Shown: positions 10,066-38,268 of the stretch, one piece after another
Position numbering within the stretch: the stretch's first letter is position 1
How the letters are laid out: each line of letters begins with the position of its first letter
Assembly: GCA_910586635.1 (NCBI GenBank)
Contig: CAJUJA010000004.1
Span: 1-45,110, forward strand
Direction: 5' to 3'
Length of the DNA: 45,110 nucleotides
Source: an uncultured Bacilli bacterium
Lineage (GTDB): Bacteria; Bacillota_I; Bacilli_A; RF39; UBA660
The notes under the pieces: model-generated
Seen by the model: the letters and a program-made list of their open reading frames with translations, nothing else
Told to the model about the DNA's origin: nothing
The model's database searches: none
Made by a program: the position numbers and the translations under genes

Positions 10066-10308
10066 ATGTTTGGAGATAGCTTTTTTAAAAGAGTCGAGAA
10101 AAAAACCAATGTAGATAAAAATACTATTTTATCCCTTGCTAAAAAATTACAAAATTCTAATAATATGAAAGATGAAAAAGTACTAAGAGATATGGTGCAG
10201 GAGATTTCAACTTTAACAGGAAGAAAGGTTGAAAAAGAAAGGGAAGACAAGATTGTAAATGCAATTATGAAAGATAATGTCCCAAAAGATATTGATAAAA
10301 TGTTTTAA
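10066..10308 (+). CDS. stage VI sporulation protein F-like (SpoVIF/YjcC family)
   Basis: 80-aa product: FFKRVEKKTNVDKNTILSLAKKLQNSNNMKDEKVLRDMVQEISTLTGRKVEKEREDKIVNAIMKDNVPKDIDKM. It follows the pattern I recall for SpoVIF (FFK..EKKTGV...LA..LQ.....DE..R..I...S...G..V....ED.IV.AI....P.D). An imperfect hairpin lies at 10317-10338 downstream. Confidence 0.55.
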   Translation: MFGDSFFKRVEKKTNVDKNTILSLAKKLQNSNNMKDEKVLRDMVQEISTLTGRKVEKEREDKIVNAIMKDNVPKDIDKMF

Positions 10309-10351
10309 GAGGCTGTAATGAAATAAAGTAATTTCATTCAGTTCTTTTTAA

Positions 10352-10380
10352 TTTAAATATTAAAAAACGCTAGATATAAT
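10352..10380 (+). promoter_or_regulatory. candidate sigmaA-type promoter upstream of the tandem-HTH ORF
   Basis: TTTAAA (10352-10357), 17-nt spacer, TATAAT (10375-10380). AT-rich background makes chance matches common. Confidence 0.3.
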
Positions 10381-10450
10381 AGTTGGGCTACTCTACTTAG
10401 AATAAACTATAGCAATTGAACTTATAAAATATTATTATCTTAGATGATAA

Positions 10451-10903
10451 AATAATGATGGTGATGTCTATATTATTAAAAGGTTAAGGGAAACAAGAGA
10501 AGATAACGAGGAAACACAACACGATATAGCAGATATATTAGAAGTCAAAAGAGGCAATTATGTTTCTTGGGAATGTGGTAGTGATATAATACCGCTAAAA
10601 AAATTATTTCAGTTTGCAAATCATTATAATGCTTCTATTGATTACATTTTAAATTTATCCAATGATAATATAAAAATAGTTTCTAATGCTAATTTAGATA
10701 CATCTATCATTAGTAGAAATTTACGAGAAATAAGATACAACCAAAAAATATCGCAATCTAAAATAGCTGAAAGTATTGGCATTAATCAATCAACTTGGTG
10801 GGTCTATGAAAATGGAATAACATATATAACTACATTAAATTTAATGACACTGTGTAAAAAATATAACTATTCTATTGATTGGATTTTAAATAGAAAAATC
10901 TAA
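10451..10903 (+). CDS. tandem-HTH XRE-family regulator lacking a canonical start codon
   Basis: The frame is open from 10451 to TAA at 10901-10903. It encodes IIKRLRETREDNEETQHDIADILEVKRGNYVSWECGSDIIPLKKLFQFANHYNASIDYILNL and a second HTH, ISRNLREIRYNQKISQSKIAESIGINQSTWWVYENGITYITTLNLMTLCKKYNYSIDWILN. No in-frame ATG/GTG/TTG occurs until near the 3' end. GGTGA at 10460-10464 lies 7 nt before ATT at 10472. An ATG-rich mini-ORF (10455-10487) sits in another frame. Confidence 0.55.
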   Translation, partial: NNDGDVYIIKRLRETREDNEETQHDIADILEVKRGNYVSWECGSDIIPLKKLFQFANHYNASIDYILNLSNDNIKIVSNANLDTSIISRNLREIRYNQKISQSKIAESIGINQSTWWVYENGITYITTLNLMTLCKKYNYSIDWILNRKI

Positions 10904-11103
10904 CTATTAAAAATCAATTAATTTATTATCTCTTTCGATTTATATAAAGATTCATATTTAATAATATTATAGGATATACTATTATAAACAAAATTATTAA
11001 GATAAGTGATAATAGTCAAAATGCAAAAAAAACAAATATATTATCATTAATTTTTTATTACAAATATACTTTTTCTAAAGTGGCAGCTTCTATTTACATT
11101 AAT

Positions 11104-11138
11104 AAAAAAGCATCACATCACTTGTGATTACTTTTTTT
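11104..11138. terminator. bidirectional hairpin terminator between the convergent tandem-HTH gene and the Rhs operon
   Basis: ATCACA-tcact-TGTGAT (11112-11128) is flanked by an A-run on the left and TTTTTTT (11132-11138) on the right. Confidence 0.55.
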
Positions 11139-11216
11139 ATGGCACAGTATAAATCTGTGATTGACTTTCTTAAAGATATCAGAAATGCCATTTACTAAAA
11201 ATATGTCATTAGAAAT

Positions 11217-11681
11217 TTAGTCCTCTTCAACATAATACCACTTATTTTTTAATTTCCTTTTTTTATCTACGTAATGCCATTCATAATCATTATAATTATT
11301 GAAATACACTATATTCTGTGCAAAATTAATTTGAGAATTAAAGCATATTATTATATTATTCTTTTCTTTTTGAATATATTCTACATCAAACTTTTCTATG
11401 AAAGTAGCAATATTTTTATAGCTTTTTTTCAATTCATTAGCACTGATAACAGAGTGTTCTTTATTAATATCCAGTTCATATAGGGAATTGTTTTTTCTTA
11501 AAGTCATAGACTCATAATTTTGATTTAATAATTCATCTTTTAAACTATTAAATTCATTTTGATTCATATAATAATACATCATGATTTTAAAAGAATTTTC
11601 TTTTGCCGAAGGAAAAAATATAATAATTAACATAATACTATATATAACACCAAATAGAGTTAATAAAAACAGTTTTTTCAT
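11217..11681 (-). CDS. candidate cognate immunity protein of the Rhs toxin (small membrane-anchored protein)
   Basis: 154-aa ORF starting 19 nt after the Rhs stop, with a gaggtg RBS. N-terminal hydrophobic segment MKKLFLLTLFGVIYSIMLIIIFFPSA. No recognised family. The immunity assignment rests on position only. Confidence 0.5.
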   Translation of the reverse strand: MKKLFLLTLFGVIYSIMLIIIFFPSAKENSFKIMMYYYMNQNEFNSLKDELLNQNYESMTLRKNNSLYELDINKEHSVISANELKKSYKNIATFIEKFDVEYIQKEKNNIIICFNSQINFAQNIVYFNNYNDYEWHYVDKKRKLKNKWYYVEED

Positions 11682-11700: not shown

Positions 11701-14700
11701 TTAAATTTGTTTTCGCCACATTTCTATTCCTTTTTTTATTGCCTTATGATCATTAGGATCATCACAATAATATGGACCTATTAAAATTTTAGGAGTAGCA
11801 CCACAATGAGCATATCCGCCACCCATATATAATAATTCATCAGAAAATCCCATAGCTTTGCCAACATATCCATAATGTATATTCCCAAAATCTTCTGCAT
11901 CAATCACTTCTCCATTGAATATAAATTTTCCATTATTTTTCAAATATGGAACATCAAACTCCTTCTCCCATATTTCTTCTCTTTTATAATCCCATTCCTG
12001 TTTATGATTAACCTGATTTTTAAAATAGTCTAATGCAGCAGCTTGACTCAAAGTTCTACTATAATAATTAGCTTCTAGAGCATTTTGGTGTAATACCTTA
12101 TTTAATTCAGCACTATAATTAGGCAAATTATTATTATTTTTTTTTGTTGTTTTTTTTGTTGCTTTTTTATTTTTGTTTTTACTAGTAATACTACTTACTA
12201 CCTTAGCTACTTTCTTTACAACTTTGTTAACAACAGATTTAACCTTTTTAAATATTGATTTTAAACTAGTTCCATTATTGTCATAATTATTAATAGGATT
12301 ATTACTTACATATGCATACAAATTACATGATATTATGTCCTGATTTGAACCTAATATAACATCTGGGCTAATAAATCTTCCCCATTTAGGATTATAGTAT
12401 CTATTGTTCAAATAATATAATCCTGTTTCCTCATCATAGTAATAACTTCTATATCTAATTGGGTTTATTTTACCTATATGATTATTGTCAGTAATTTCAA
12501 TACTATTTGAATCTTTTACTGAAATTAAGTCTCCCCAACTGTCATATTCATAAGTTACTATCTTTTCTCCATTTTCATTTAATATTCCTATTACATCATC
12601 TTGCATATTTTTTAAATAAAAATATATATTTTCATTATATTTAAATCCTATTAACCCATCAATATCATATATATAGTATATCATATCATTATTTCTTTTT
12701 TCAAATATAATATTATTATTTATAGTCTTATATTTTGTGCATATACCATTAACAACTTTAGATAACCTTACGCCATTTAAATCATATGCATAATTAACTA
12801 ATATACCATTATCCTCATCTATATATGACTTTAGAGAGTTTCCATCAATCCAAGTTAAACTAGCAGTCCCAATATTAATAGGATTACCAATAGCATCATA
12901 TGATATATTTTCTTCATCAAAGCAAGTCAATTGATCTTCCCAATTAATATTATTATATTGATAAACATGTGTTTTTATAATCGCATTATTACTATTATCA
13001 TATATAGTCTTATTTATAATATTTCCAGAAATATCATATGAATAATCTATATGAGTACCACTATCATAGTTATATTCACTTATTAATTCATTAAAATCAT
13101 CATACTCATAATGTTTTTGTAATTCATCATCATTAAAAATATCAGTTATATTATATAATTGGTCATAAATATATGTATTTTTGCTTCCATTAATTATAAA
13201 ATCTCTTATCATATTGCTTGTTCTTTTTCCATGTGTTAAATAATTAATTTTCAAATTCAAAATACTGCCAATCATTTTTTTATTCATTCTATTTAAGTCA
13301 TCATACTCATAATTAATAATCATATTGTCGTCAGATAACTCAATTACATTCTCATAGCTATCAAAGTTCATATCTTGGCTATGTTCTATATTATCGAATA
13401 TATATTTTTTCTGGACAATATTATTATTGGAATCATATTTATATTTGGTAATAAATTGTTCCTCTTGATACATATATAGTCTATTACTTTCGTCATAATA
13501 AAATTTAGTTTGTCCATAGTTAGATATAATCTTTGATATATTTCCATTATTATTATATTTATATAGATATACATTATCCATCTTCGTTATTTTACTTACT
13601 CTATCAAAATAATCATACTCGAAGTTAATAATATTGTCATTTCCATACAAAATTGATATCAAATTACCATTGTTAGATTCATAGTTATTCTGTAAAAATA
13701 CTATTTGTTCACCCAAAGAAGTTTCCACTATATTTAAAAAGTCATCATATTTTAATTTAAAAATTTTATTTCCCTGACAAATTTCAGAAATTAAATTTTT
13801 ATTATTGTAATGATATATTATTTTTCTTCCATTAAAATCACATGACACTAATTGTTGTCTATCATTATATTCATATGTAGTTATATTTCCCTTTGGATCT
13901 GTACTTGACTCTAATAATCCTGTATTTTGATTATAAGAATACAAGGTTGTATTAAGATTACTATCTGTAAAACTATTTATAAACTTATTATCTTTACTAT
14001 ATGTATATTCTATTTCAGTAAATATGCTTTCTTTTGTTTCAATATAAAACTCAGTTCCAGATTTATCACCATCAAGCACCTTCGTTGATAATAAATTACC
14101 ATTTGCAACAACATACTTTGATACAACCCCATTTGAAGTTATATCTTCATATACTATACTATAAGAATAATCATCATTCTTCAACAATTTAAATAAATTA
14201 TTTGTAGCACTATTTTCTAGAAAAATGTTTCCATCTCTATATGTCATAACATAATCTGGATTCATTAAATAACTGATTTTATAGAAATCTCCCTGTTTTT
14301 CAAATTTCCATAGTGTATTACTACAGTTATTCTCCTCCAAAAGAATATTATTTAACTCTGCTTTAAAGAAACTATTTGTTCCTTTTTCTCTAATTCTAAA
14401 TATACCTCCATCAATTTCTTTAACATATAATTTTGATGTTCTCATTTCAACTGGATTTCCAAAATCATTATATATCATTTTATTAGAAACACCATTATCT
14501 GCTATCATATTTATTACTCGATCTTTTTTAATTTTATCATATTCATATTTAAAACTATTATTTAACGAATTAGTAATACTTATTATTTTATTACTCTCAT
14601 CATATTTAAATGACTCACTATTCTTTGACTGATCTTCTATAGAAATTAAATTTCCTTTTTCGTCATAATTATATTCACCACTTGTGACATTTTTATAAAA

Positions 14701-17700
14701 AGATAAATTTGTTAAATATAACTTATTTGCATCCCCATTTTGAAATAAAGAAATTGTAATTGACTTAAAATCTTCTATTGCCACTTCTTTATTAATATAA
14801 TATTGCCATACATTTTCACTAGTCACTGGTAAAACATAAGAGGATATACAATGACCAAAATCGTCATTGTATGGTTCATAAAATATTGAAATATTAGATG
14901 CTGTATAAGGAGCATATTGTACTATTCCATCATACTTATACCAAAATGCCAGTGTATAAACATCTCCTTTTTTACCTTTTATATCAAATTTTTTATTAAT
15001 ATTTGTAGAATTTAGAGGATTCATTTCTATTCTCAATGCTTTATCATTATTATCATTTATACTAACAACTTTAATATAATCATTGGGATTTAATTCTTGC
15101 TCACCTCTACTGGCAGATAAACTCCATCCTGATAATCCCTGTGAAAAATTAGAATTTTCCAAGATATTATAATAGTTAGCAACTTCTCCAGTTTCTAATT
15201 GAATATCATCTACATAAATAATTCCAATATCTTGCAGTACAATCTTAATTTTCAAATCACTGGTAGCTTCTTCATCATAATATATTGTTGTATCAGTTCT
15301 TTCAAACTCATCAGACACCTTAATAGTTTCGGAGCTTTCTATTTCATTATCCTTACTATCAAAGTATGATAAAGAAATATATGCTGCAATATTACTTTTT
15401 ATATATGCGCTAAATGTATAGTATTGTCCTTTTTTAATAATAACATCCTGTTCAATACATCTGTTATTCGAGCTTGATTGTAATTTTAAACTTCTTAATC
15501 CTGAATGATAAAATTCTGTATCAAAATTTTTTGTTATTCCATCTTCAGATATAAAATAATCATTGTCAACTTCAAAACTTGTATTTTTTAATAAATTGTT
15601 TATATGCCTAATAGGAATCACATCTGAAACTATATCATTATTTTCATTATATTCTTCTTTAATCGAATATGCATTGGTAATATCATTAATAGATTTTAAA
15701 TTACTTTTTGATACCACATTACCATTAGTATTGTACGCAAGCAATTCTACTCTACCCTTATGATCTATAATGGTTGTACAACCTAATCCATATTCAAGTG
15801 TATAAAATTGCCCTATTTTATGATTCAATCCATATTGAATAACTTTTTTTACTCTATAAGGACTTTTTTCATAATACTCATAATTTATTTTTAAACCAGT
15901 AACATCGGTAATTCCAGAAATTACATTAGTTGATGCATATTCAAATAAAGTTTTCCCATTTTTTGTATTAATTGAAGTAAGAATGTCATTTTCATATTGT
16001 AATGTAACTATTTCACTCTGACTATTTATAATTATTTTATCTTCAGCATAGGTTATATTAATTATATTATCAAAACTATCAGTAATTTTATTAATTGAAT
16101 TATTTTGGTTTAATATAATGCTAATTTCATTTCCATTACTATCTTTGATTTTTGTTAAATGGTATATATCACCTATCTTAGTAAAGGTTTTTATTTCACC
16201 ATTACTACTTGTCATTATGTAGTCTAAGTTATCTTTTACAATACTTAATCCTAAACCATCTTCATCATAATAACTATTTTTATCTTGTGAAGAATCAAAT
16301 CCATATCCGCCAAGATTAAAATAATGAATAGTACCATCTTCATCAATATATTGTAGTCTATTTTCATCTTGCTCTTTTATATATTGTTCTAGATTTAACT
16401 TAAACCCTTTCCCAAAAAAAGTACTATTTTCTAAAATAACATCATTAGTATTATAAACCAATTCTAAACCTACAGGAATTGCTCCTCCTATTGTTTTCCC
16501 TAAACTAAATACTGAAGTAATATTACCATTATATGTATTAATATATGAAACCCCATCTGTAAAATTTTGCTTTTTATAATCCCAATAAGTCTCTAAACCA
16601 TTTTGATTACGATATGTTATAGCTGCAATTGGTTTAGGATTTCCTGATACTTGATTTTCTGTAGAAAAAAACATTGGAAAATCATCATCAACATATTCTT
16701 CATTACAAGATTTTATCATTATACCATAATTTGGAGTATCACGATACCACTTCTTCACTAAATTGGTTATATCAAAACCAGTGGTTCTATAACTTAAGGT
16801 AGAATTAACAATAGTTGATCTTTCAAATTCATATACAGATTCGACTCTATTATTGAATTTATCATTCATCACATTCCAAGTTGCTGTATTAACATCCCAA
16901 TCTGAAGTTACTTGATGAGTTTCCATTAAATAAACTTTTGAAGAAGTATTAGAAGTAGATTTAACATAAGGAACAACATATAATGCTGCATCAATAATTT
17001 CACTACCTGTTCCTATTTGTGGCAAAGTAAATTTGATAAGTGTCCTATTAATTCTATCTACACCGTTGATATGTTCTACTCCTGCTTTTAAATAATGTTT
17101 TGCATTTCTATTGTCATTATTATCACCTGGATAAATATATGTATCATATAAAGAAAGTTCATTGTTTTCATTCGTTATAGTTGGATCTATATAGACTGGA
17201 AATATTCTTTTTTCAGAACTCAACCACTCATCGTCCAAAACCAACGTCAAAATATATCCATCATCAAAACTATTAAGTAAATAATGAATACTATCATTTC
17301 TTATTTCATTCGAATCCATCATATATGGTTTTTCAATTTTAAATATAATTTGCCCCTTTTCATTCTTAGCTATTATCTCCCCATCTTCATTTGATAAAAT
17401 TAGATCAGTATCTAATTCAAAATTTAATTCTGAATAATTAGCGTTTTGTAATACAATTGTTTCCTTTACCTTATTTGATAAAGTTTGATATTCAACTTTA
17501 ATATCATCAGTAATATTATTATAAGTAATATTTTGCATTTTTTTAGAAATTTTTCTTTTTTCAGATTTAAGATTGCCTATACTTGATTGTCTAATCTTAA
17601 AATCTATATAATGATCATCCTTAGTCATCTTCATTAATGAATCTCTAAAATTTTCTTTAAATTCGACTTTATAATCATTATTTTTATTTCTTAATACACC

Positions 17701-17859
17701 ATTCTCACATACCAAAGTATTATCAATTTCTTCATACTTTCCATCTTTCAAATAATGAATATCTGTATCATATACTTCAGCAAGAATTGTACCATCTTCT
17801 CTTAGAAAATGTTTTTCACGAGGTTTTCTTTTTTCTATTAGTTCAATTTGCTTCATCAT
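11701..17859 (-). CDS. Rhs/YD-repeat polymorphic toxin, 2052 aa, no recognisable export signal
   Basis: Many YD repeats (YSYNQNTGLLESSTDPKGNITTYEYNDRQQLVS, YKYNNNGNISKI, YEYDDLNRMNKK, YSYDISGNIINK, ISYDAIGNPINIG). Rhs-associated core at aa ~1765-1865 (VTYEYDSWGDLISV...INPIRYRSYYYDEETGLYYLNNRYYNPKWGRFISPD...NLYAYVSNNPINNYDNNGT). A Lys-rich linker and a 187-aa C-terminal domain follow. Two CBM4_9/galactose-binding-like modules at aa ~753-892 and ~897-1057 (NLLKNTSFEVDNDYF; NILENSNFSQGLSGWSLS). A possible beta-trefoil lectin insert at aa ~1150-1278 (TLWKF, NLFKL). The N-terminus MMKQIELIEKRKPREKHFLRED is hydrophilic. Confidence 0.9.
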   Translation of the reverse strand: MMKQIELIEKRKPREKHFLREDGTILAEVYDTDIHYLKDGKYEEIDNTLVCENGVLRNKNNDYKVEFKENFRDSLMKMTKDDHYIDFKIRQSSIGNLKSEKRKISKKMQNITYNNITDDIKVEYQTLSNKVKETIVLQNANYSELNFELDTDLILSNEDGEIIAKNEKGQIIFKIEKPYMMDSNEIRNDSIHYLLNSFDDGYILTLVLDDEWLSSEKRIFPVYIDPTITNENNELSLYDTYIYPGDNNDNRNAKHYLKAGVEHINGVDRINRTLIKFTLPQIGTGSEIIDAALYVVPYVKSTSNTSSKVYLMETHQVTSDWDVNTATWNVMNDKFNNRVESVYEFERSTIVNSTLSYRTTGFDITNLVKKWYRDTPNYGIMIKSCNEEYVDDDFPMFFSTENQVSGNPKPIAAITYRNQNGLETYWDYKKQNFTDGVSYINTYNGNITSVFSLGKTIGGAIPVGLELVYNTNDVILENSTFFGKGFKLNLEQYIKEQDENRLQYIDEDGTIHYFNLGGYGFDSSQDKNSYYDEDGLGLSIVKDNLDYIMTSSNGEIKTFTKIGDIYHLTKIKDSNGNEISIILNQNNSINKITDSFDNIINITYAEDKIIINSQSEIVTLQYENDILTSINTKNGKTLFEYASTNVISGITDVTGLKINYEYYEKSPYRVKKVIQYGLNHKIGQFYTLEYGLGCTTIIDHKGRVELLAYNTNGNVVSKSNLKSINDITNAYSIKEEYNENNDIVSDVIPIRHINNLLKNTSFEVDNDYFISEDGITKNFDTEFYHSGLRSLKLQSSSNNRCIEQDVIIKKGQYYTFSAYIKSNIAAYISLSYFDSKDNEIESSETIKVSDEFERTDTTIYYDEEATSDLKIKIVLQDIGIIYVDDIQLETGEVANYYNILENSNFSQGLSGWSLSASRGEQELNPNDYIKVVSINDNNDKALRIEMNPLNSTNINKKFDIKGKKGDVYTLAFWYKYDGIVQYAPYTASNISIFYEPYNDDFGHCISSYVLPVTSENVWQYYINKEVAIEDFKSITISLFQNGDANKLYLTNLSFYKNVTSGEYNYDEKGNLISIEDQSKNSESFKYDESNKIISITNSLNNSFKYEYDKIKKDRVINMIADNGVSNKMIYNDFGNPVEMRTSKLYVKEIDGGIFRIREKGTNSFFKAELNNILLEENNCSNTLWKFEKQGDFYKISYLMNPDYVMTYRDGNIFLENSATNNLFKLLKNDDYSYSIVYEDITSNGVVSKYVVANGNLLSTKVLDGDKSGTEFYIETKESIFTEIEYTYSKDNKFINSFTDSNLNTTLYSYNQNTGLLESSTDPKGNITTYEYNDRQQLVSCDFNGRKIIYHYNNKNLISEICQGNKIFKLKYDDFLNIVETSLGEQIVFLQNNYESNNGNLISILYGNDNIINFEYDYFDRVSKITKMDNVYLYKYNNNGNISKIISNYGQTKFYYDESNRLYMYQEEQFITKYKYDSNNNIVQKKYIFDNIEHSQDMNFDSYENVIELSDDNMIINYEYDDLNRMNKKMIGSILNLKINYLTHGKRTSNMIRDFIINGSKNTYIYDQLYNITDIFNDDELQKHYEYDDFNELISEYNYDSGTHIDYSYDISGNIINKTIYDNSNNAIIKTHVYQYNNINWEDQLTCFDEENISYDAIGNPINIGTASLTWIDGNSLKSYIDEDNGILVNYAYDLNGVRLSKVVNGICTKYKTINNNIIFEKRNNDMIYYIYDIDGLIGFKYNENIYFYLKNMQDDVIGILNENGEKIVTYEYDSWGDLISVKDSNSIEITDNNHIGKINPIRYRSYYYDEETGLYYLNNRYYNPKWGRFISPDVILGSNQDIISCNLYAYVSNNPINNYDNNGTSLKSIFKKVKSVVNKVVKKVAKVVSSITSKNKNKKATKKTTKKNNNNLPNYSAELNKVLHQNALEANYYSRTLSQAAALDYFKNQVNHKQEWDYKREEIWEKEFDVPYLKNNGKFIFNGEVIDAEDFGNIHYGYVGKAMGFSDELLYMGGGYAHCGATPKILIGPYYCDDPNDHKAIKKGIEMWRKQI

Positions 17860-17868
17860 AATACTCTC

Positions 17869-18417
17869 CTAACTAATTCTTTTCCACATATAAACTGCAA
17901 GATATGGAGGCATATTATTGTGAGCACCATTTCCACCAGTTTTTTGACATCCAGAAATATCTCCTCCTATTATTGCATTTCCATTTCCATGAAATGGCAC
18001 ACCTTTTCCTGAATTTCCAGACCCATCATGGGAATGAAATATTAAGGCATGTGCATGGCTTGGCATTTCTGAAGTAGTAAGTTTATGTGTTTCCTCACCA
18101 CCAATTGATCCATTTTGGTAGGTATTTCCACATGCTAATAGAAATTTATCTTTAATTTGTTCCCAACTTCCTCCAAAAAGAAACCCTGGATCTTTTTCAT
18201 TTGTTGAAATATAAATAGAACCAACTGGATACATAGCATTCAATAATGTATCTGAAATTAAGGCATCCGTCTTCAAACTTTTCACTGCTAAGTTTCCTTC
18301 ACTATCTAATTCAAATTTATTATTTTTAGAAGTAACACAAGTTACATTTAAGTTGTTTACTTCTAAATTTGTATTTTCTCCTTCTTTTGTAAAAGCATTT
18401 GTTATATAATCATTCAT
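17869..18417 (-). CDS. phage tail-collar / baseplate-fibre-type protein
   Basis: YPVGSIYISTNEKDPGFLFGGSWEQIKDKFLLACG...GGEETHKLTTSEMPSHAH...GGNGAHNNMPPYLAVYMWKRIS matches the pattern of Firmicute phage tail-collar domain proteins (P.GSIY..., GG.W, LT..EMPSH.H, HNN.PPY..VY.WKR). Its TAG stop lies within the RBS (taggagag) of the Rhs gene 10 nt downstream. Confidence 0.6.
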   Translation of the reverse strand: MNDYITNAFTKEGENTNLEVNNLNVTCVTSKNNKFELDSEGNLAVKSLKTDALISDTLLNAMYPVGSIYISTNEKDPGFLFGGSWEQIKDKFLLACGNTYQNGSIGGEETHKLTTSEMPSHAHALIFHSHDGSGNSGKGVPFHGNGNAIIGGDISGCQKTGGNGAHNNMPPYLAVYMWKRIS

Positions 18418-18458
18418 TTTCTTCTCCTCTTTTCATTTATAATTTTGTATATAACTTT

Positions 18459-18487
18459 TTTATATTAAGTATTGTTAAGCAAGTAAA
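18459..18487 (-). promoter_or_regulatory. candidate sigmaA-type promoter for the tail-collar/Rhs/immunity operon
   Basis: Minus strand reads TTTACT (18487-18482), 17-nt spacer, TATAAA (18464-18459), about 40 nt upstream of the ATG at 18417. Weak evidence in AT-rich DNA. Confidence 0.3.
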
Positions 18488-18523
18488 TAACATCTAGCAT
18501 TTTATTAAACTTTCAAATCATAT

Positions 18524-18600
18524 TATCATCTCACTTTCTAATGACAATTTCTCATAGAAAGAAGAGATTTAACAGTATATGCAAAGTACCATTATTTTTC
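18524..18600 (-). repeat. copy A of a bipartite intergenic element shared by the two island operons
   Basis: Plus-strand block 1 is tatcatctcactttct (18524-18539). Block 2 is tttaacagtatatgcaaagtaccattatttttc (18568-18600). Compare copy B at 20329-20386. A degenerate extra block 2 lies at 18663-18683 (agtacgtcagacataccattc). Confidence 0.6.
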
Positions 18601-18687
18601 CTTACTTTATAAGGGGTTTATATGTAAATACTCCAACTTTTGACCAAAATACTATTCAAAATAGTACGTCAGACATACCATTCTAAG

Positions 18688-18710
18688 AAAAAAAGACTAA
18701 AATTTAGTCT
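18688..18710 (-). terminator. rho-independent terminator after the endolysin gene
   Basis: Minus strand reads AGACTAA-att-TTAGTCT followed by TTTTTTT, about 41 nt after the endolysin stop. It separates the lysis cassette from the Rhs operon. Confidence 0.65.
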
Positions 18711-18751
18711 AATTTACCAGTAAATATGTTATTAATCTAAAATTTACAATG

Positions 18752-19696
18752 TCATACTTCATACAAAAAGGTACTATATATCCATACATTATAACCATTG
18801 ATTTCTAATTTAGCAGAATTTGTTTTTGTATCTATGTTTTTTACCTCATAAATATTTTTATTAATTACGTAACTTTTACCTCCAACTACTTTATCATCCT
18901 GTCCTTGTGAATTTCCATATTGATCCACCTCTGTAAAATCGTCTAATGGTATCCAGTGATAATCTTTAGCTAGTTCTCTATAATAATCATTATAACTAAC
19001 ACCAGTTAATTTTGTATTACCAAAAAGATTAGTAGATAGTGGACTTTTTAAAATATCCACTTTAAAAATACCATCAAACTTAACCTTAGAACCAACATGA
19101 AGTATTTGGTCAACTGCTTCTACCTGTTTTACTGGAGTATCTTTTACCAATATATCTTTAGTAGTTCTCCAATTACCATCATTACCCTTTATAATGTTAG
19201 TATTATCTACAAAGTAACAATCATCTAAATCATACTCATTATTAAAATGATAATTACCATATTGATTTTTGAACCAAGAAGTATCAGAACTTTGACTAAC
19301 TTCTATATGGCAATGAACTCCAGTCATATTGGAATATCCTTTCCTTCCCATATTTCCTAACCGACTTCCTTGCTCTACAACCTGTCCAACTCTAACATCC
19401 ATAGTCTCATCATGAGCAGTCATAAATGTTGCATAATCAACTCTTCCATTGGCAAATCTTACTTTTTTAGTCGATTGCCACATAACTTGTCCTGTTTTAG
19501 GGTAGGTTTTTATGCATTTACAGGTACAGGAAGCATAATAGGGATATTTGACTCCTGCTACTTTTCCTCTTACGTCATTAGCAAGTATCCCCTTATGAGA
19601 ATAAGCACCTCCTGAGCCTTGTGATATATACATATCAGTGAAAGGACATAAAAAATTTTCAATTCCCCTATTACTAGACTTTTGACCTTTTATCAT
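18752..19696 (-). CDS. M23-family peptidoglycan endopeptidase with SH3-like C-terminal cell-wall-binding half (endolysin)
   Basis: NMTGVHCHIEVSQ fits the M23 s.TG.HLH.E motif, with an upstream SHKGILANDVRG...G metal-ligand region. The C-terminal half (VGSKVKFDGIFKVDIL...; KSYVINKNIYEVKNID...WIYSTFLYEV) looks like tandem SH3-type binding modules. ATGA start/stop overlap with the holin gene. Confidence 0.65.
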   Translation of the reverse strand: MIKGQKSSNRGIENFLCPFTDMYISQGSGGAYSHKGILANDVRGKVAGVKYPYYASCTCKCIKTYPKTGQVMWQSTKKVRFANGRVDYATFMTAHDETMDVRVGQVVEQGSRLGNMGRKGYSNMTGVHCHIEVSQSSDTSWFKNQYGNYHFNNEYDLDDCYFVDNTNIIKGNDGNWRTTKDILVKDTPVKQVEAVDQILHVGSKVKFDGIFKVDILKSPLSTNLFGNTKLTGVSYNDYYRELAKDYHWIPLDDFTEVDQYGNSQGQDDKVVGGKSYVINKNIYEVKNIDTKTNSAKLEINGYNVWIYSTFLYEV

Positions 19697-19932
19697 ATTA
19701 CTTCTACCCTTTTCTTATTTATATAATTAGCAATTAATGTTTTTACTGCTGATATTGCTGCAGCTAATCCTCCAATACAAGAACTCTTAAAAATTGCTCC
19801 ATTATAATCTATTGTATTAGATAAAACTACAGAAAATCCACCTAAAAAACCTTCTACAAATGTCCAAAAAACTCGTCTTACAATATCACTTTTCATAAAA
19901 AATTTAATTTTACTTAATATTTTCTTCATCAT
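19693..19932 (-). CDS. phage-type holin
   Basis: 79 aa, two hydrophobic helices (VFWTFVEGFLGGFSVVLS; SCIGGLAAAISAVKTLIA) and a charged C-terminus (NKKRVEVI). It lies immediately upstream of the endolysin gene and overlaps it. Confidence 0.65.
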   Translation of the reverse strand: MMKKILSKIKFFMKSDIVRRVFWTFVEGFLGGFSVVLSNTIDYNGAIFKSSCIGGLAAAISAVKTLIANYINKKRVEVI

Positions 19933-19940
19933 ATCACCTT

Positions 19941-20255
19941 CTAATTTAATCTGTCTTCTAATTTATCAATCCTATCATGAGCATGTTTTGTATTCTCTTC
20001 ACATCTTGCAACACGTTCACTTATATCATCAAACTTATTATTCAAATTTTTGACTTCATTTTTAAGTTCAACATTTCCAGTAATTACCAAATCAAGCTTA
20101 GTTGAGATTGTAGTATCTCTTTTCACACGTTCTTCTATAGCCTCTTTGTTATCATTATTCATATTATTTTTGTAAGTCAAAATAGCTATTAAGGATGTGA
20201 TGATAGTACAAAAGATAGATATAATTAGTGAATAATTTATACTCATTCTTATCAC
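19941..20255 (-). CDS. membrane-anchored coiled-coil lysis accessory protein (BhlA/UviB-like topology, XhlA-like coiled coil)
   Basis: N-terminal TM segment INYSLIISIFCTIITSLIAILTY, then a heptad-rich region ending AHDRIDKLEDRLN. First gene of the lysis cassette. GTG at 20255 or ATG at 20246 (MSINYS...) could be the start. Confidence 0.45.
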   Translation of the reverse strand: MIRMSINYSLIISIFCTIITSLIAILTYKNNMNNDNKEAIEERVKRDTTISTKLDLVITGNVELKNEVKNLNNKFDDISERVARCEENTKHAHDRIDKLEDRLN

Positions 20256-20408: not shown

Positions 20409-20927
20409 TTAACTTAAAGGATCAAAATGATTAACCTGCAGTATCTGATTGATATCATCAATTGGAGAATCATATAAATTTCTTAATATGTAACAGTATA
20501 GGCAACTCTTCTCATTATCATAACTTTCTATATGGAATCCTGCCATTTTAAGTAAATCGAAACTAAACTCTGGTGGTAATTTCATTCCAATACATAAAGC
20601 GATTATTGTTTCTAATGAATATCCTCTTTTTCGATTCGTTTCTATTTCCTTAATAGTTTGTGAACTAATATAGGACTTTTCTTCTAACTTTTCTCTTGTC
20701 ATTCCCATACTTTCTCTTAAATATCTTAATTTTCTTCTAAAATCGTATGGTAAATCATCACATATAATAGAAACCTTATTATAATAATTTTCAAATTTTT
20801 TAGGAGATTTTTTTATTTCATAAATTGATTCAAATTTTTTTATCTTTTGTCTCTTTTTCATTCTTATATTTGCATCAAAATTACTAACTACTTTGGATAA
20901 ACTGCTTTCTCTTTCCTTTTTATTCAT
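20409..20927 (-). CDS. XRE-family HTH transcriptional regulator
   Basis: FRRKLRYLRESMGMTREKLEEKSYISSQTIKEIETNRKRGYSLETIIALCIGMKL is an HTH_3 domain. The tail LLKMAGFHIES...INQILQVNHFDPLS is typical of a common Firmicute XRE subfamily. ATG at 20927 follows a ggggtg RBS (track start is GTG at 20936). Confidence 0.7.
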   Translation of the reverse strand: MNKKERESSLSKVVSNFDANIRMKKRQKIKKFESIYEIKKSPKKFENYYNKVSIICDDLPYDFRRKLRYLRESMGMTREKLEEKSYISSQTIKEIETNRKRGYSLETIIALCIGMKLPPEFSFDLLKMAGFHIESYDNEKSCLYCYILRNLYDSPIDDINQILQVNHFDPLS

Positions 20928-21076
20928 AATATACACCCCTGTTAATTAGCTATAATAGCAAAAAAAAAGAGACATGAATATCACCATAATTATACTATAA
21001 TTGATCGAGTATGTCCTATATAAGTATAGCTTGATTAGGCATAATACCGTTTATTAACACTCATCATTTAAACATA

Positions 21077-21385
21077 CTATCTATTTAAGGATTTATTTTT
21101 ATTTTTTCTTCTTTTTCTGTTTTTGTGATTATCTTTTACAATTTTATAATGTAGTAAATCTTCTATCCTGCAATTTAAAGCAAAACACATACGAGATAGC
21201 AAATCTAAATCTACTCTATATAATTTTCCTTCAACATATTTTTGAATAACACTCCAATTAATACCTGTTAATCTACTCAATCTATAGACATTCATATGCT
21301 TCTTTTTTAAAACTTCTTCAATTGTTAAAACAATTTCTCCATAGTTCTTATATATTTTTTCATATACATATCTCTCTTTTCCCAT
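21077..21385 (-). CDS. Cro/C1-type (HTH_26-like) transcriptional regulator with a basic tail
   Basis: MNVYRLSRLTGINWSVIQKYVEGKLYRVDLDLLSRMCFALNCRIEDLL fits the Cro/C1 HTH_26 pattern. The C-terminus is KNRKRRKNKNK. Confidence 0.65.
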   Translation of the reverse strand: MGKERYVYEKIYKNYGEIVLTIEEVLKKKHMNVYRLSRLTGINWSVIQKYVEGKLYRVDLDLLSRMCFALNCRIEDLLHYKIVKDNHKNRKRRKNKNKSLNR

Positions 21386-32915: not shown

Positions 32916-34139
32916 TTATAAACCCGTTCCAATTAATTTTCCTGCTTTACTATAAACAATAAATTTAGGAAGATAATTCTTCTTGTCATAAGTGGAATAA
33001 CCACTAATAAGATAACGATTATCCATTTGTTTAATATCTGTAAAATAATCATCTATTTCATTTTCATATTCTACAATCTTTAGCTCTTTTAAATCTCTAT
33101 TATATTTTGCAAAGATTCCATTATATTGAAAGACCATCATATCGTCCGTTGATTTTTCCTTATTATAAATTCCAGTTTGACCTGATATTACTAAGTTGTC
33201 TTGATCTTTAATCACTTTATTATATCGTTCTTTACCTTTTCCTTTATAGGTTGCTTCCTTTACTAAGTGACAATCCGCATCATACTCTACTATAAGAGAA
33301 TCCGTATCATAATCCGTTTTATCTTTCCCTACTTTTTTGGCTCCTACTACAAATAGCTGGTTATCTACTGTTGTGATGCCTGTAAAACCAAAACTATCTG
33401 TAGCCTCATAATTCTCTGTGGTGATTTTATTTCCTTCTAAATCGTATTTTGAAATAATTCCTATATTAGAGGCGTCCTTTCCTACCGTGTATATATTACC
33501 ATCTAGTATTAGTAAATCATTATAGATTCCTGACTTAGAGCCCCCGTAATTACTCCTCCAAACTTCGTTTAATTCCTTATCATATTTAATTAAGATAGCT
33601 CCCCCTTCATCGGATAATCCTAAAGTCATATTCTCATAAATACTCTGCCCTACTACTAAATAGCCATCTTCTAATACCAATAGGTTCATAAATTTCGAGT
33701 TCCCCAATACTTGAAAATCATTTTCATAAAGAATTTCTCCATTATTATCATATTTCACAATTAACGCAGATCGAGTCTTATTTCTATGTTCATCTTTAGT
33801 AGATTCATAATTTCCTACTGCAATATAATTATCCTTATCCTTTTTCACTCCAAAGAAACTACTGTTATACCCTTTGTTATAAAATTTTTCCCAAATCTTC
33901 TTCTGTTCTCTATCATACTTTGTAATCTTAGCCTTTTCCTGTCTTTTATCATTATTGTTATTACTTCCTACAGAAATAATATCAGAATCCATAACTTCAA
34001 ACGAATTAATACTATCAAAATATGATTTATCTTTTTTCATTACTTTTTCTGTATAGATAATAACAACTAAATCAATAATCAAAATAATAAAACAAATAAT
34101 TACAGTATATTTCATTATTCTTTTTAATCTACTACTCAT
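32916..34139 (-). CDS. membrane-anchored repeat protein (probable beta-propeller), unknown function
   Basis: N-terminal TM (YTVIICFIILIIDLVVIIY), then about 6-7 repeats of roughly 45-55 aa of the form ..Y.VG......D..IvKYD..G...w (IAVGNYE...LIVKYDNNGEILYE; LVVGQSI...ILIKYDKELNEVWRS; IYTVGKD...IISKYDLEGNKI; LFVVGAK...LIVEYDADCHLV). It starts 13 nt after the tyrS stop. Confidence 0.55.
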   Translation of the reverse strand: MSSRLKRIMKYTVIICFIILIIDLVVIIYTEKVMKKDKSYFDSINSFEVMDSDIISVGSNNNNDKRQEKAKITKYDREQKKIWEKFYNKGYNSSFFGVKKDKDNYIAVGNYESTKDEHRNKTRSALIVKYDNNGEILYENDFQVLGNSKFMNLLVLEDGYLVVGQSIYENMTLGLSDEGGAILIKYDKELNEVWRSNYGGSKSGIYNDLLILDGNIYTVGKDASNIGIISKYDLEGNKITTENYEATDSFGFTGITTVDNQLFVVGAKKVGKDKTDYDTDSLIVEYDADCHLVKEATYKGKGKERYNKVIKDQDNLVISGQTGIYNKEKSTDDMMVFQYNGIFAKYNRDLKELKIVEYENEIDDYFTDIKQMDNRYLISGYSTYDKKNYLPKFIVYSKAGKLIGTGL

Positions 34140-37278: not shown

Positions 37279-38268
37279 CTAATCCTTCTCATACATTGAA
37301 TCTATTAAATCAAACAAATTATCATCGTCTGTTTCTTCATCCATAGATTTTTCTGTTTCTACATTATTTTGATGTTCGTTTTGATTTTCACTCTTGAAAG
37401 CTACTTCTTCTTCACTTTCATAGTTTTTATTGGTTCTTCTCCCTGTTGCTTTTTCTTTCGAGGCATCTTTGTAATCTACATTATATTCTAACCCTAAATC
37501 TTCAAAATATTCTTCCGCATCTCCTACTGTCACCTTTTTGACTTCAGGAGTATCGGTTTCTGTACTTAGGTCTAATAGTGAAGAATCTTCTTCCTCATCA
37601 TCTTCATAACTTATTATATTAACTGGTTCTCTATTTTCTCTAAACTCTCTTTCAATATCATTTGTTAAATTGCCATAGGCTCTTTTTCTGACTTCATCTA
37701 AATCTAGGTTCTCATGTGCATAACTACTAGTAAGCCTTACTTCTTTTCTATCCCTTATTTCTTCTTTTTTATAATTTTTATCTAAAATACCGTAAATTGG
37801 CGAAATAATAGGGGATGGTTTAAAGTAGGATCTCTCCTCTTTTTTTTCATATAATCCATGTTCTTTTTCTGGTAAATCAAACTCATCTAGCCCATATGGT
37901 TTTGATTTTTTCTCATGTGAGATCTTATTCTCAGGTTTCTTTTTCTCCCTTTTTACAGGTTCTTCTTTTTTTCTTTTTTCTTTTGGCATTTCTTCTATTT
38001 TAAAGTCTTTATCCTCCATCACTGGGAATTTAAAATCATTTTTATTCTTTTCTTGGATTTCAAAATCCTCATCCAAAAGTTCCGGTTCTTCCTCTATTAT
38101 TTCTTTTCTTTCTGGTTGAACAATCTTTTTAGCAATTGGTTTTTCCTTGGGTTTTGGTTCTTCTTTTTTTCTTTTTTCTTTTTTGATCTCTTTCTTTTTT
38201 GGCTTTTCTTCCACTTCTACATATTCTTCTTCAAAAAGAGCATTCTTTAATTTATCTAACAATTTCAT
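37279..38268 (-). CDS. Lys/Glu-rich low-complexity protein with N-terminal amphipathic helix, unknown function
   Basis: The sequence MKLLDKLKNALFEEE is followed by KEKRKKEEP, which occurs twice. The central motif is FKPSPIISPIYGILDK and the C-terminus is acidic. Confidence 0.5.
   Translation of the reverse strand: MKLLDKLKNALFEEEYVEVEEKPKKKEIKKEKRKKEEPKPKEKPIAKKIVQPERKEIIEEEPELLDEDFEIQEKNKNDFKFPVMEDKDFKIEEMPKEKRKKEEPVKREKKKPENKISHEKKSKPYGLDEFDLPEKEHGLYEKKEERSYFKPSPIISPIYGILDKNYKKEEIRDRKEVRLTSSYAHENLDLDEVRKRAYGNLTNDIEREFRENREPVNIISYEDDEEEDSSLLDLSTETDTPEVKKVTVGDAEEYFEDLGLEYNVDYKDASKEKATGRRTNKNYESEEEVAFKSENQNEHQNNVETEKSMDEETDDDNLFDLIDSMYEKD

Follow-up and report, generated by a model that had tools for sequence, protein, structure and literature searches.

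The 2052-amino-acid Rhs protein encoded in a 45,110-nucleotide stretch of DNA from an uncultured Bacilli bacterium (Bacillota_I; Bacilli_A; RF39; UBA660) belongs to a clade of Rhs/WapA-type toxins that, as read from its genes and their order, has lost the Sec signal peptide. The Rhs gene of this leaderless clade is co-transcribed with a gene for a phage receptor-binding-tip-like protein and adjoins a putative holin/hydrolase module, which here includes an XhlA-like gene. The whole stretch, called the window below, covers positions 1 to 45,110 of contig CAJUJA010000004.1 (assembly GCA_910586635.1, forward strand) and has a G+C content of ~27%. As far as full-text searching shows, a link between the leaderless state and a phage receptor-binding tip with a lysis module has not been described in the literature. 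We lean towards the reading that the Rhs protein would fold in the cell, be released by a lysis cassette resembling a type 10 secretion system (T10SS), and be aimed by its lectin modules and the receptor-binding partner. The wider question is how very large Rhs/WapA toxins exit Gram-positive cells and find their targets.

Leaderless Rhs genes and their phage-type neighbours

The Rhs open reading frame (ORF) lies in a compact minus-strand island of ~10 kb, which contains, in order, two XRE regulators, the 104-aa (amino acid), 79-aa and 314-aa ORFs, a gap, the 182-aa ORF, the Rhs gene and a 154-aa ORF.

20409..21385, minus strand: two XRE-type helix-turn-helix regulators of 175 aa (20409-20936) and 102 aa (21077-21385), with HTH_3, HTH_26 and phage repressor-type PHROG matches
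19941..20255, minus strand: XhlA-like protein, 104 aa, N-terminal transmembrane helix and coiled coil (weak XhlA match, E 0.029)
19693..19932, minus strand: 79-aa ORF with two hydrophobic helices in the holin position, called from size, topology and position; its stop overlaps the hydrolase start
18752..19696, minus strand: M23-like (endolysin-like) peptidoglycan hydrolase, 314 aa, no signal peptide, called from PHROG and subthreshold Pfam matches
17869..18417, minus strand: phage receptor-binding-tip-like protein, 182 aa, Gp10_C domain (PF21939, 68.9 bits), no signal peptide
11701..17859, minus strand: Rhs ORF, 6159 nt, 2052 aa, ATG start
11217..11681, minus strand: candidate immunity ORF by position, 154 aa, N-terminal transmembrane or signal-anchor helix

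The Rhs protein starts without a leader. Its first 70 aa contain no hydrophobic segment: hydropathy over 15 aa peaks at 0.3, whereas signal-bearing relatives exceed 2. The ATG lies 9 nt past the stop codon of the upstream Gp10_C gene, which leaves no room for an N-terminal leader. Moreover, a GGAG ribosome-binding site 7 nt 5' of the ATG overlaps the same stop codon, and by this arrangement the tip gene is predicted to be translationally coupled to the Rhs gene.

The family shows a contrast in these features. An alignment-based genome scan finds 116 loci encoding relatives of the insert region described below (a scan with the single protein gave one locus). They belong to metagenome-assembled genomes labelled Bacilli or Erysipelotrichaceae and, more distantly, Lachnospiraceae, Oscillospiraceae, Acutalibacteraceae and Blautia, mostly from animal guts. 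In the close ('Bacilli') clade of 40 non-redundant loci, the Rhs protein begins at the motif MKxIELIxKRKPREKHFL with no hydrophobic leader in 40/40 cases, and a Gp10_C-type gene is located directly upstream in 39/40. The distant ('Clostridia') clade shares 22-27% identity in the inserts, usually has the same N-terminal domain behind a classical signal peptide, and has no Gp10_C gene. For association counts, 64 loci with a complete Rhs gene were divided into 41 leaderless and 23 signal-bearing loci, and lysis genes were sought within -5/+4 kb. The tip gene is present in 35/41 leaderless loci versus 0/23 signal-bearing ones (Fisher 3e-12), and a holin and/or hydrolase gene in 27/41 versus 0/23 (Fisher 4e-8). 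In addition, when 109 ORFs neighbouring the signal-bearing Rhs genes were scanned with Pfam irrespective of family, no lysis or tail family recurred.

From locus to locus, the lysis modules are non-orthologous, and they are sited either upstream or downstream of the Rhs gene. Their hydrolases include M23, GH25 (1e-28), an SH3_3 protein and a weak M15-like match, and their holins include Phage_holin_4_1 (1e-18; found in relatives L007, L060 and L070), a weak Hol44/A118-like match and unclassified two-helix ORFs. Among the few leaderless members of the Clostridia clade, L060 and L070 have a Phage_holin_4_1-like gene and, behind it, one for a hydrolase-like protein (CHAP-like by eye only), L074 has relatives of both the holin and the hydrolase-like genes, and L080 has an M23-like gene upstream of its Rhs ORF. 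In the window, the 314-aa hydrolase matches Peptidase_M23 at 26.3 bits, below the gathering score of 28.7, and also matches phrog_9066 endolysin (1e-16) and phrog_11037 (5e-31); an HxH motif (VHCHIEV) is visible. The 104-aa protein matches phrog_1863 (3e-17) and the 'hemolysin' phrog_937 (0.0035), and the 79-aa ORF has no family match; at the corresponding place, relatives encode Phage_holin_4_1.

The tip protein has tail and tail-fibre PHROG matches and shares 42-48% identity with the C-terminal part of the 'antireceptor' found in Lactobacillus delbrueckii phages (Ld3/LL-Ku), the region that forms the receptor-binding head of Lactobacillus phages and binds the bacterial surface. Among PDB sequences, it has a single marginal match (7z47, E 0.055). 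Its first ~50 aa are conserved across 30 loci and absent from phage antireceptors (MN.YI...FTK.....NLEVNNL...CITSKNN.F.LDS.GNL.V.SI), whereas the head loops at aa 121-160 are variable. A conserved docking end with a variable receptor end is the usual logic of receptor-binding proteins, and we hypothesise that the tip might dock to the Rhs protein via this family-specific segment. The segment occurs in only 142 clusters (50% identity; P0121-P0262) among 1.84 billion representative proteins, and in some clusters of 350-450 aa it is located at about residue 160-230. The idea that it forms a YD-like hairpin extending the shell was dropped; the only large protein matched, P0220, has cadherin-like repeats, and the strand motif in common, F-x-I-D-S-x-G-N-x-x-V-K, is a generic one.

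Hydrolase and tip genes are separated by 334 bp (18418-18751), in which an AT-rich hairpin and T-run (TTAGACTAAATTTTAGTCTTTTTTT, by eye) and a strong ribosome-binding site (AAGAGGAGAAGAAA-ATG) are found. This arrangement suggests two transcription units, the lysis genes and tip-Rhs-immunity. A promoter and terminator scan was uninformative in the AT-rich DNA (120 promoter-like sites versus 105 expected). As regards regulators, ~13 related loci (L017, L019, L020, L022, L024, L028, L029, L041, L042 and others) encode before the tip gene a ~160-aa protein with sigma-70 region 4 only (Sigma70_r4_2, 1.7e-8), in place of which the window has its two XRE-type genes.

Domain architecture of the Rhs protein

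The Rhs protein consists of an N-terminal arm, a YD-repeat shell interrupted by three inserts, a protease core and a C-terminal toxin. From the N-terminus, its parts are as follows.

17149..17859, minus strand: aa 1-237, conserved N-terminal domain without signal peptide, starting at the family motif given above
16618..17148, minus strand: aa 238-414, DNRLRE domain, a beta-sandwich surface module (NF033679)
15604..16617, minus strand: aa 415-752, DUF6531 plug region (DUF6531 at aa 456-514) and first YD-repeat shell block, including YINTYNGNI, which aligns with the N-terminal cleavage signature known elsewhere among Rhs proteins
15175..15603, minus strand: aa 753-895, insert 1, predicted CBM4_9/CBM16/CBM22-type beta-sandwich (CBM_4_9 profile, AlphaFold2 and Foldseek)
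14689..15174, minus strand: aa 896-1057, insert 2, second predicted beta-sandwich of carbohydrate-binding-module (CBM) type, in tandem with insert 1 (fold match and weak profile match)
14413..14688, minus strand: aa 1058-1149, short YD-repeat shell segment between inserts (TIGR01643 YD_repeat_2x at aa 1065-1106)
14020..14412, minus strand: aa 1150-1280, insert 3, predicted beta-trefoil of the CBM42 / HA17-HA33 / ricin-B fold class (AlphaFold2 and Foldseek)
12547..14019, minus strand: aa 1281-1771, main YD-repeat shell block (best RHS_repeat stretch at aa 1313-1338; NF041261, RHS_core, at aa 1294-1527)
12271..12546, minus strand: aa 1772-1863, Rhs-associated core, an aspartyl-protease plug with D1833 and D1860 (TIGR03696), ending in NNPINNYDNNG
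12268..12303, minus strand: aa 1853-1864, cleavage motif N-N-P-I-N-N-Y-D-N-N-G-T, with a cut predicted after T1864 by analogy with DPxG-L and TDPSG-H
12025..12270, minus strand: aa 1864-1945, Lys-rich amphipathic helix and spacer directly past the predicted cut site, called from the sequence
11701..12024, minus strand: aa 1946-2052, predicted Ntox44 toxin domain (PF15607 at aa 1946-2048, 65.2 bits)

Most of this map agrees with an earlier note on the same DNA, made from the letters alone. The note had placed a beta-sandwich module, possibly of DNRLRE type, at aa ~225-415, where NF033679 matches at aa 238-414 with 81 bits against a cutoff of 34 (E 9.5e-23, model positions 1-163 of 164). It had also placed YD repeats at aa ~430-750, 1060-1145 and 1285-1780, and these are borne out by PF05593 (80 bits), TIGR01643 (68 bits) and a partial NF041261 match. 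In PDB sequence searches, the stretch at aa 1058-1149 matches the solved Rhs shells 8qja and 8cp6, and the N-terminal 251 aa have no credible relative. The only family match of aa 1-237, scanned alone, is a weak one to DUF7948 (E 5e-4). The Rhs core matches TIGR03696 at 74.9 bits against a cutoff of 32.5. YD sequence outside the inserts comes to ~910 aa, against 840 aa in the Rhs1 barrel (PMC8636562), and by this analogy a complete cocoon with three external decorations is plausible.

Pfam and NCBIfam scans of the Rhs protein give no match to LXG, WXG or PAAR, nor to a cell-wall-binding module (LysM, CWB, SH3). A TcA partner, the TcB SpvB module and beta-propeller modules are found neither in the Rhs protein nor in its neighbours. 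By its sequence, the protein is a member of the Rhs/YD polymorphic toxin class and has every testable defining feature of that class except the literal DPxGL spelling of the cut site.

Carbohydrate-binding-type inserts

Two segments were suspected to be CBM4_9-like (aa ~753-892 and ~897-1057), and this is supported by a profile match for the first and a fold match for both. When scanned alone, insert 1 (aa 745-897) matches CBM_4_9 at 31.2 bits against a gathering score of 25.9 (E 3e-7), and insert 2 (aa 890-1062) matches it weakly (E 0.032). A PDB sequence search with the inserts returns Rhs shells alone, via the YD segment, so that a fold search was needed for their classification. For this, aa 745-1290 were aligned with 37 full-length relatives and modelled by AlphaFold2, giving an all-beta model with a pLDDT of 88.6. 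Foldseek against the PDB matches this model to the tandem CBM22-1/CBM22-2 of Xyn10C (4xup; ~347 columns, E 1e-12), to single CBM16 modules (TM ~0.8, rmsd 2.2-2.7 A), and to CBM-like domains of Cry1Ac protoxin and Vip3. Among viral models, the CBM inserts match CBM-CenC modules of phage minor tail and tail-fibre proteins.

The model of aa 1140-1290 is a beta-trefoil of 12 strands (pLDDT 90.1, pTM 0.83), with Foldseek matches to CBM42, botulinum HA17/HA33, the CDT-A lectin subunit, Symfoil designs and FGF (E ~5e-6, TM ~0.7; 3kmv, 3win, 2e4m, 1sr4 and others). The same segment has no Pfam match even at E <= 10 and no Ricin_B profile match, and it contains TLWKF and NLFKL, not QxW. The suggestion of a ricin-type QxW periodicity at aa ~1150-1278 is therefore right as to the trefoil fold and wrong as to the motif, there being no sequence-level ricin match. 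All three inserts are kept across relatives in the family consensus. Taken together, the profile and fold matches of the Rhs protein are far beyond chance. Mapped with Pfam and NCBIfam and modelled with AlphaFold and Foldseek, the inserts come out as CBM-type folds and not as ordinary YD shell; in the models, two are CenC/CBM4_9-type jelly rolls and one is a beta-trefoil.

Predicted self-cleavage sites

The Rhs core ends in GRFISPD(1833)VILGSNQDIISCNLYAYVSNNPINNYD(1860)NNG(1863)T. The earlier note had given the same ending, ...YAYVSNNPINNYD(1860)NNG(1863)T, and had called the motif degenerate, a description which the family does not support, as NNPINNYDNNGT is the family norm. The canonical PxxxxDPxGL / DPxG-x17-18-DPxG signature is indeed absent. 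The two motifs read SPD(1833)VILG and YD(1860)NNGT, neither with Pro, and D1833 and D1860 are 27 residues apart, against about 22 in the canonical signature. In column statistics over 96 aligned relatives, the first Asp is present in 96/96, the second position is Asp in 94 and Glu in 2, and the Gly is present in 96/96. A Pro next to the second Asp is seen in 16/96, and the Gly is followed by N, H, K, Y or Q much more frequently than by L. Among sequences with a recognisable cut site, Pro is found in 21/115 and Leu in 6/115. As judged from these alignments, the motif is relaxed across the family with its functional residues kept, and is not broken.

In Rhs1, the catalytic Asp lies in the second motif and D1338N abolishes C-terminal cleavage (PMC8636562). 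The WapA of S. suis is cut after the His of TDPSG-H (PMC12704120). Since both Asp residues and the Gly are conserved and S. suis WapA cuts at a site without Leu after the Gly, C-terminal self-cleavage is probably retained.

The N-terminal signature differs more. Elsewhere it reads D|PVYVASGE or PVSMVTGE, and E|PINLNTGNF in S. suis WapA (PMC8636562, PMC12704120). The equivalent position here (aa ~434-463, window ~16470-16560) reads YINTYNGNITSVF, and the alignment columns across the family give [T/A/S]-Y-V-N-T-Y-N-G-N-L without an acidic-Pro pair. Because this pair is absent, the shell may keep its N-terminal DNRLRE arm.

C-terminal toxin, post-cut helix and candidate immunity

Relatives align over ~91% of the Rhs length and then differ at the C-terminus, which carries PF15607, PF15654 or no known family. 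In the present protein, the Ntox44 motifs DxK, GNxxxG and DxxxD listed by Zhang et al. are all found. Between the predicted cut and the toxin domain lies a Lys-rich amphipathic helix (SLKSIFKKVKSVVNKVVKKVAKVV). A helix of one of two kinds is present here in 96/115 relatives, whichever toxin domain comes after it. It is Lys/Arg-rich and amphipathic in 61/115, and a transmembrane-like helix followed by a Lys-rich tract in 35/115. Such a segment may be a membrane-active delivery or 'pre-toxin' element.

A small ORF follows the Rhs gene in every locus inspected. The candidate immunity ORF of the window has no family match and does not resemble the downstream ORF at another Ntox44 member. In ten related loci (L016, L022, L025, L027, L031, L035, L036 and others), orphan Rhs C-terminal fragments lie downstream, each with a core end and an alternative toxin and then followed by small ORFs. 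By their layout, these are typical displaced toxin/immunity cassettes.

Family distribution and genomic setting

At least 667 database proteins match the Rhs protein at E <= 1e-10. The best 120 matches are nearly all 2000-2110 aa long with 42-71% identity, and more than 100 proteins of ~2050 aa have the same layout; one relative is displayed at source as 'DNRLRE domain-containing protein'. Moreover, RHS repeats with lectin domains set among them were reported in 2012 (Zhang et al.), and the architecture is thus not the unusual one that it had been taken for. The earlier note had also named a common family with a known export route as the outcome that would count against it; the family is common, and a known export route is lacking for the leaderless clade.

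Phage databases hold little of this family. Matches to the Rhs protein occur in 13/50,697 phage records, are weak or partial, and in no case cover 80% of it. Of these 13 records, eight are entered as 'Bacteriophage sp.' and derive from human faecal samples, several of them lacking annotation; one that was inspected is labelled UNVERIFIED. A phage-borne origin of the Rhs gene was accordingly rejected; the record followed up, MT835475, has a standalone N-domain and DNRLRE only. In this record (MT835475.1, UNVERIFIED; L089, 8791-10245), a 484-aa protein matches Rhs aa 2-386 at 23% identity, which means that the N-terminal module also exists without a YD shell. The genes adjoining the 484-aa ORF have no informative PHROG matches.

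The flanks of the island in the window are housekeeping and sporulation genes, with Der, SpoVIF, sortase and HU on one side and SpoIVA, acetate kinase, ThiI, EzrA, TyrS and FemAB on the other. As these flanks are housekeeping genes and vary between loci, the island is not read as a prophage. No capsid, tail, contractile-tail, type VI secretion system (T6SS) or type VII secretion system (T7SS) genes are found in the 45-kb window, nor is a tRNA or an orphan Rhs C-terminal cassette (tblastn of 10300-11250 was negative for the latter). Between spoVIF and the candidate immunity gene, ~900 bp (10309-11216) at 24% G+C contain no ORF above 46 aa and have no similarity to the Rhs or candidate immunity ORF; this segment may be the decayed end of the island. 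Elsewhere on the minus strand, two ORFs amid housekeeping genes (32916-34139, 407 aa; 37279-38268, 329 aa) have no Pfam match at E <= 1e-5.

Proposed mechanism and alternatives

A T10SS lysis cassette serves to release Rhs-containing Tc toxins, and holins do so for large clostridial toxins (PMC10847048). A comparable course is proposed for the leaderless Rhs toxin. The regulators would switch the island on in some cells. The Rhs protein would then fold in the cytoplasm and cut its toxin free at D1860-x-x-G-T, with the toxin kept inside the cocoon. Through lysis or a T10SS-like leakage, holin and hydrolase would set free the tip protein together with the Rhs particle of ~230 kDa. Surface or wall glycopolymers of competitor bacteria would then be bound outside the cell by the tip head and, on the Rhs side, by the DNRLRE domain, the trefoil and both CBMs. 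The toxin fragment (~190 aa) would leave the cocoon, and the cationic amphipathic helix past the cut would help it to reach its target, while the downstream membrane-anchored ORF would protect kin. The absence of T6SS, T7SS and contractile-tail genes from the window fits the earlier idea of a toxin acting without a dedicated injection machine.

A wider version is offered tentatively, and we think it somewhat less likely than not to hold. It describes a hitherto undescribed, secretion-system-independent delivery module of gut Bacillota built from phage parts, in which a lysis cassette frees a pre-assembled, lectin-decorated cocoon and the tip, docked via its ~50-aa N-terminus, aims it at competitor walls. 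The product would be a diffusible 'Rhs bacteriocin', a monoderm counterpart of Tc toxins with the tip trimer and lectin inserts replacing TcA. Loss of the Sec signal and gain of phage genes would then mark the switch from contact-dependent WapA.

Several points weigh against release by a lysis cassette. Only 27/41 leaderless loci have lysis genes; many contigs are short, but some long ones lack such genes as well. The counts ignore phylogeny, most leaderless loci forming one clade, and the independent events number perhaps three or four. The lysis-gene queries were derived from leaderless loci. In the window, the holin is called from size, topology and position, the M23 match falls below the Pfam threshold, and the XhlA match is weak. 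In addition, a large cocoon or its cargo would have to cross a Gram-positive wall, a passage that the study of S. suis WapA states is not understood (PMC12704120). The thin family matches of the window lysis genes and the 14/41 leaderless loci with no lysis gene nearby would also suit an ordinary WapA-like toxin with unlinked export (by a cryptic signal, a T7SS or another exporter), beside a decayed prophage remnant with no functional tie; such remnants are common near toxin islands. This explanation is given a minor share of belief. A remnant would hardly keep the tip gene immediately upstream in 35/41 leaderless loci despite differing flanks, and translationally coupled here, nor would its lysis modules be swapped for non-orthologous ones instead of being lost. 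Moreover, tip and lysis genes are found in 0/23 signal-bearing relatives, and the exporters named find no LXG, WXG or PAAR domain in the Rhs protein and no T7SS gene in the 45-kb window.

A further alternative is a toxin directed at the animal host or other eukaryotes. The trefoil and CBMs would then bind host or mucin glycans, and the protein would be a Tc-like enterotoxin and not antibacterial. In its favour, the CBM-like domains of Cry1Ac and Vip3, HA17/HA33 and the CDT lectin subunit are among the best structural neighbours, gut metagenomes are the source of the related loci, and the known lysis-released large toxins are mostly anti-eukaryotic. We nevertheless regard a eukaryotic target as improbable. 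Polymorphic C-termini, each followed by a small ORF, and orphan C-terminal cassettes in 10 loci are hallmarks of interbacterial toxin/immunity systems; the tip head resembles a bacterial-surface binder, the Lactobacillus phage antireceptor, at 42-48% identity; and the CBM inserts resemble phage tail adhesin modules. The phage-type character of the tip, endolysin, holin and XhlA-like genes, together with a few virome contigs that encode Rhs-like proteins, could further mean that Rhs and tip belong, as accessories, to a phage or phage-like particle whose genes lie elsewhere, perhaps as a toxin-bearing tail appendage on a helper phage. This is given very little credence, as capsid, terminase, tape-measure, sheath and tube genes are missing from the window and from inspected relatives, and the 13/50,697 matching phage records (8/13 of them 'Bacteriophage sp.' from faeces) in no case cover 80% of the Rhs protein.

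Significance

The lectin inserts and the altered motif are correct observations, but the architecture is common and was already anticipated. Taken alone, they give a well-supported domain map of a common, uncharacterised family and one correction, namely that the motif is relaxed, not broken. The family offers a natural contrast open to simple genetics, with a signal peptide and no phage genes on one side, and no leader but tip and lysis genes on the other. If lysis-cassette release is true, this exit route of Rhs cocoons would reach beyond insect-pathogen Tc toxins into interbacterial warfare among gut Bacillota. Phage receptor-binding heads would then be reused as toxin targeting subunits, and the tip head, CBMs and trefoil would be modular parts for retargeting protein antibacterials.

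Comparison with known systems

WapA (B. subtilis; S. suis WapA-CT1, PMC12704120): The Rhs protein resembles WapA in its N-terminal domain with DNRLRE, DUF6531, YD shell and Rhs core with a D-x-x-G cut site. Both have a variable C-terminal toxin with an adjacent small ORF, and a residue other than Leu after the Gly (TDPSG-H in WapA). In contrast to WapA, the Rhs protein lacks a Sec signal peptide and LysM or any other wall anchor, has three lectin-type shell inserts, and has no Pro in either DPxG motif and no acidic-Pro pair at the N-terminal signature. Moreover, phage tip and lysis genes are linked to the Rhs gene.

T6SS Rhs effectors (P. laumondii Rhs1, PMC8636562; P. protegens RhsA, PMC8765631): The YD cocoon, the C-terminal aspartyl-protease plug and the encapsulated toxin are shared, encapsulation being predicted here, and shell segments match 8qja, 8cp6, 7q97 and 7pq5 by sequence. 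In contrast, the present protein comes from a Gram-positive host and lacks a PAAR/VgrG-binding N-terminus, an Eag chaperone, DPLGL-x17-DPLGL and the D|PV N-terminal signature.

Phage receptor-binding proteins with CBMs: The tip head is 42-48% identical to the C-terminus of the antireceptor of L. delbrueckii phages Ld3/LL-Ku, and phage CBM-CenC minor tail proteins have a fold in common with the Rhs CBM inserts. Unlike these phage proteins, the tip has no shaft or baseplate context and carries its head on a family-specific 50-aa N-terminus.

Tc (ABC) toxins released by T10SS (Yersinia entomophaga YenTc, PMC10847048, PMC10847046): An Rhs/YD cocoon around an autoproteolytically released toxin is common to both, the release being predicted here. 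The lack of a signal peptide is also shared, as are, by prediction from genes and models, folding in the cytoplasm, a putative holin/endolysin cassette near or in the locus, and receptor-binding modules on the particle. In contrast to the Tc toxins, the present locus has no TcA translocator, no TcB beta-propeller or SpvB module and no spanins (the host is monoderm); it has a single-chain Rhs protein with a small phage-tip protein, and it likely targets bacteria.

Large clostridial toxin loci with TcdE-type holins (C. difficile PaLoc, TpeL, TcsL; cited in PMC10847048): Similarities are a leaderless large toxin in Bacillota with a dedicated regulator, an endolysin-like gene and, in relatives L007, L060 and L070, a phage-type holin next to it. 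The small sigma-70 region-4 regulator in ~13 loci related to the Rhs locus recalls the clostridial toxin sigma factors. On the other hand, the Rhs toxin class is unrelated, and a candidate immunity gene, polymorphic C-termini and a receptor-binding-tip partner are added here. In its likely release route, the Rhs protein resembles the Tc and large clostridial toxins, and it belongs to neither family.

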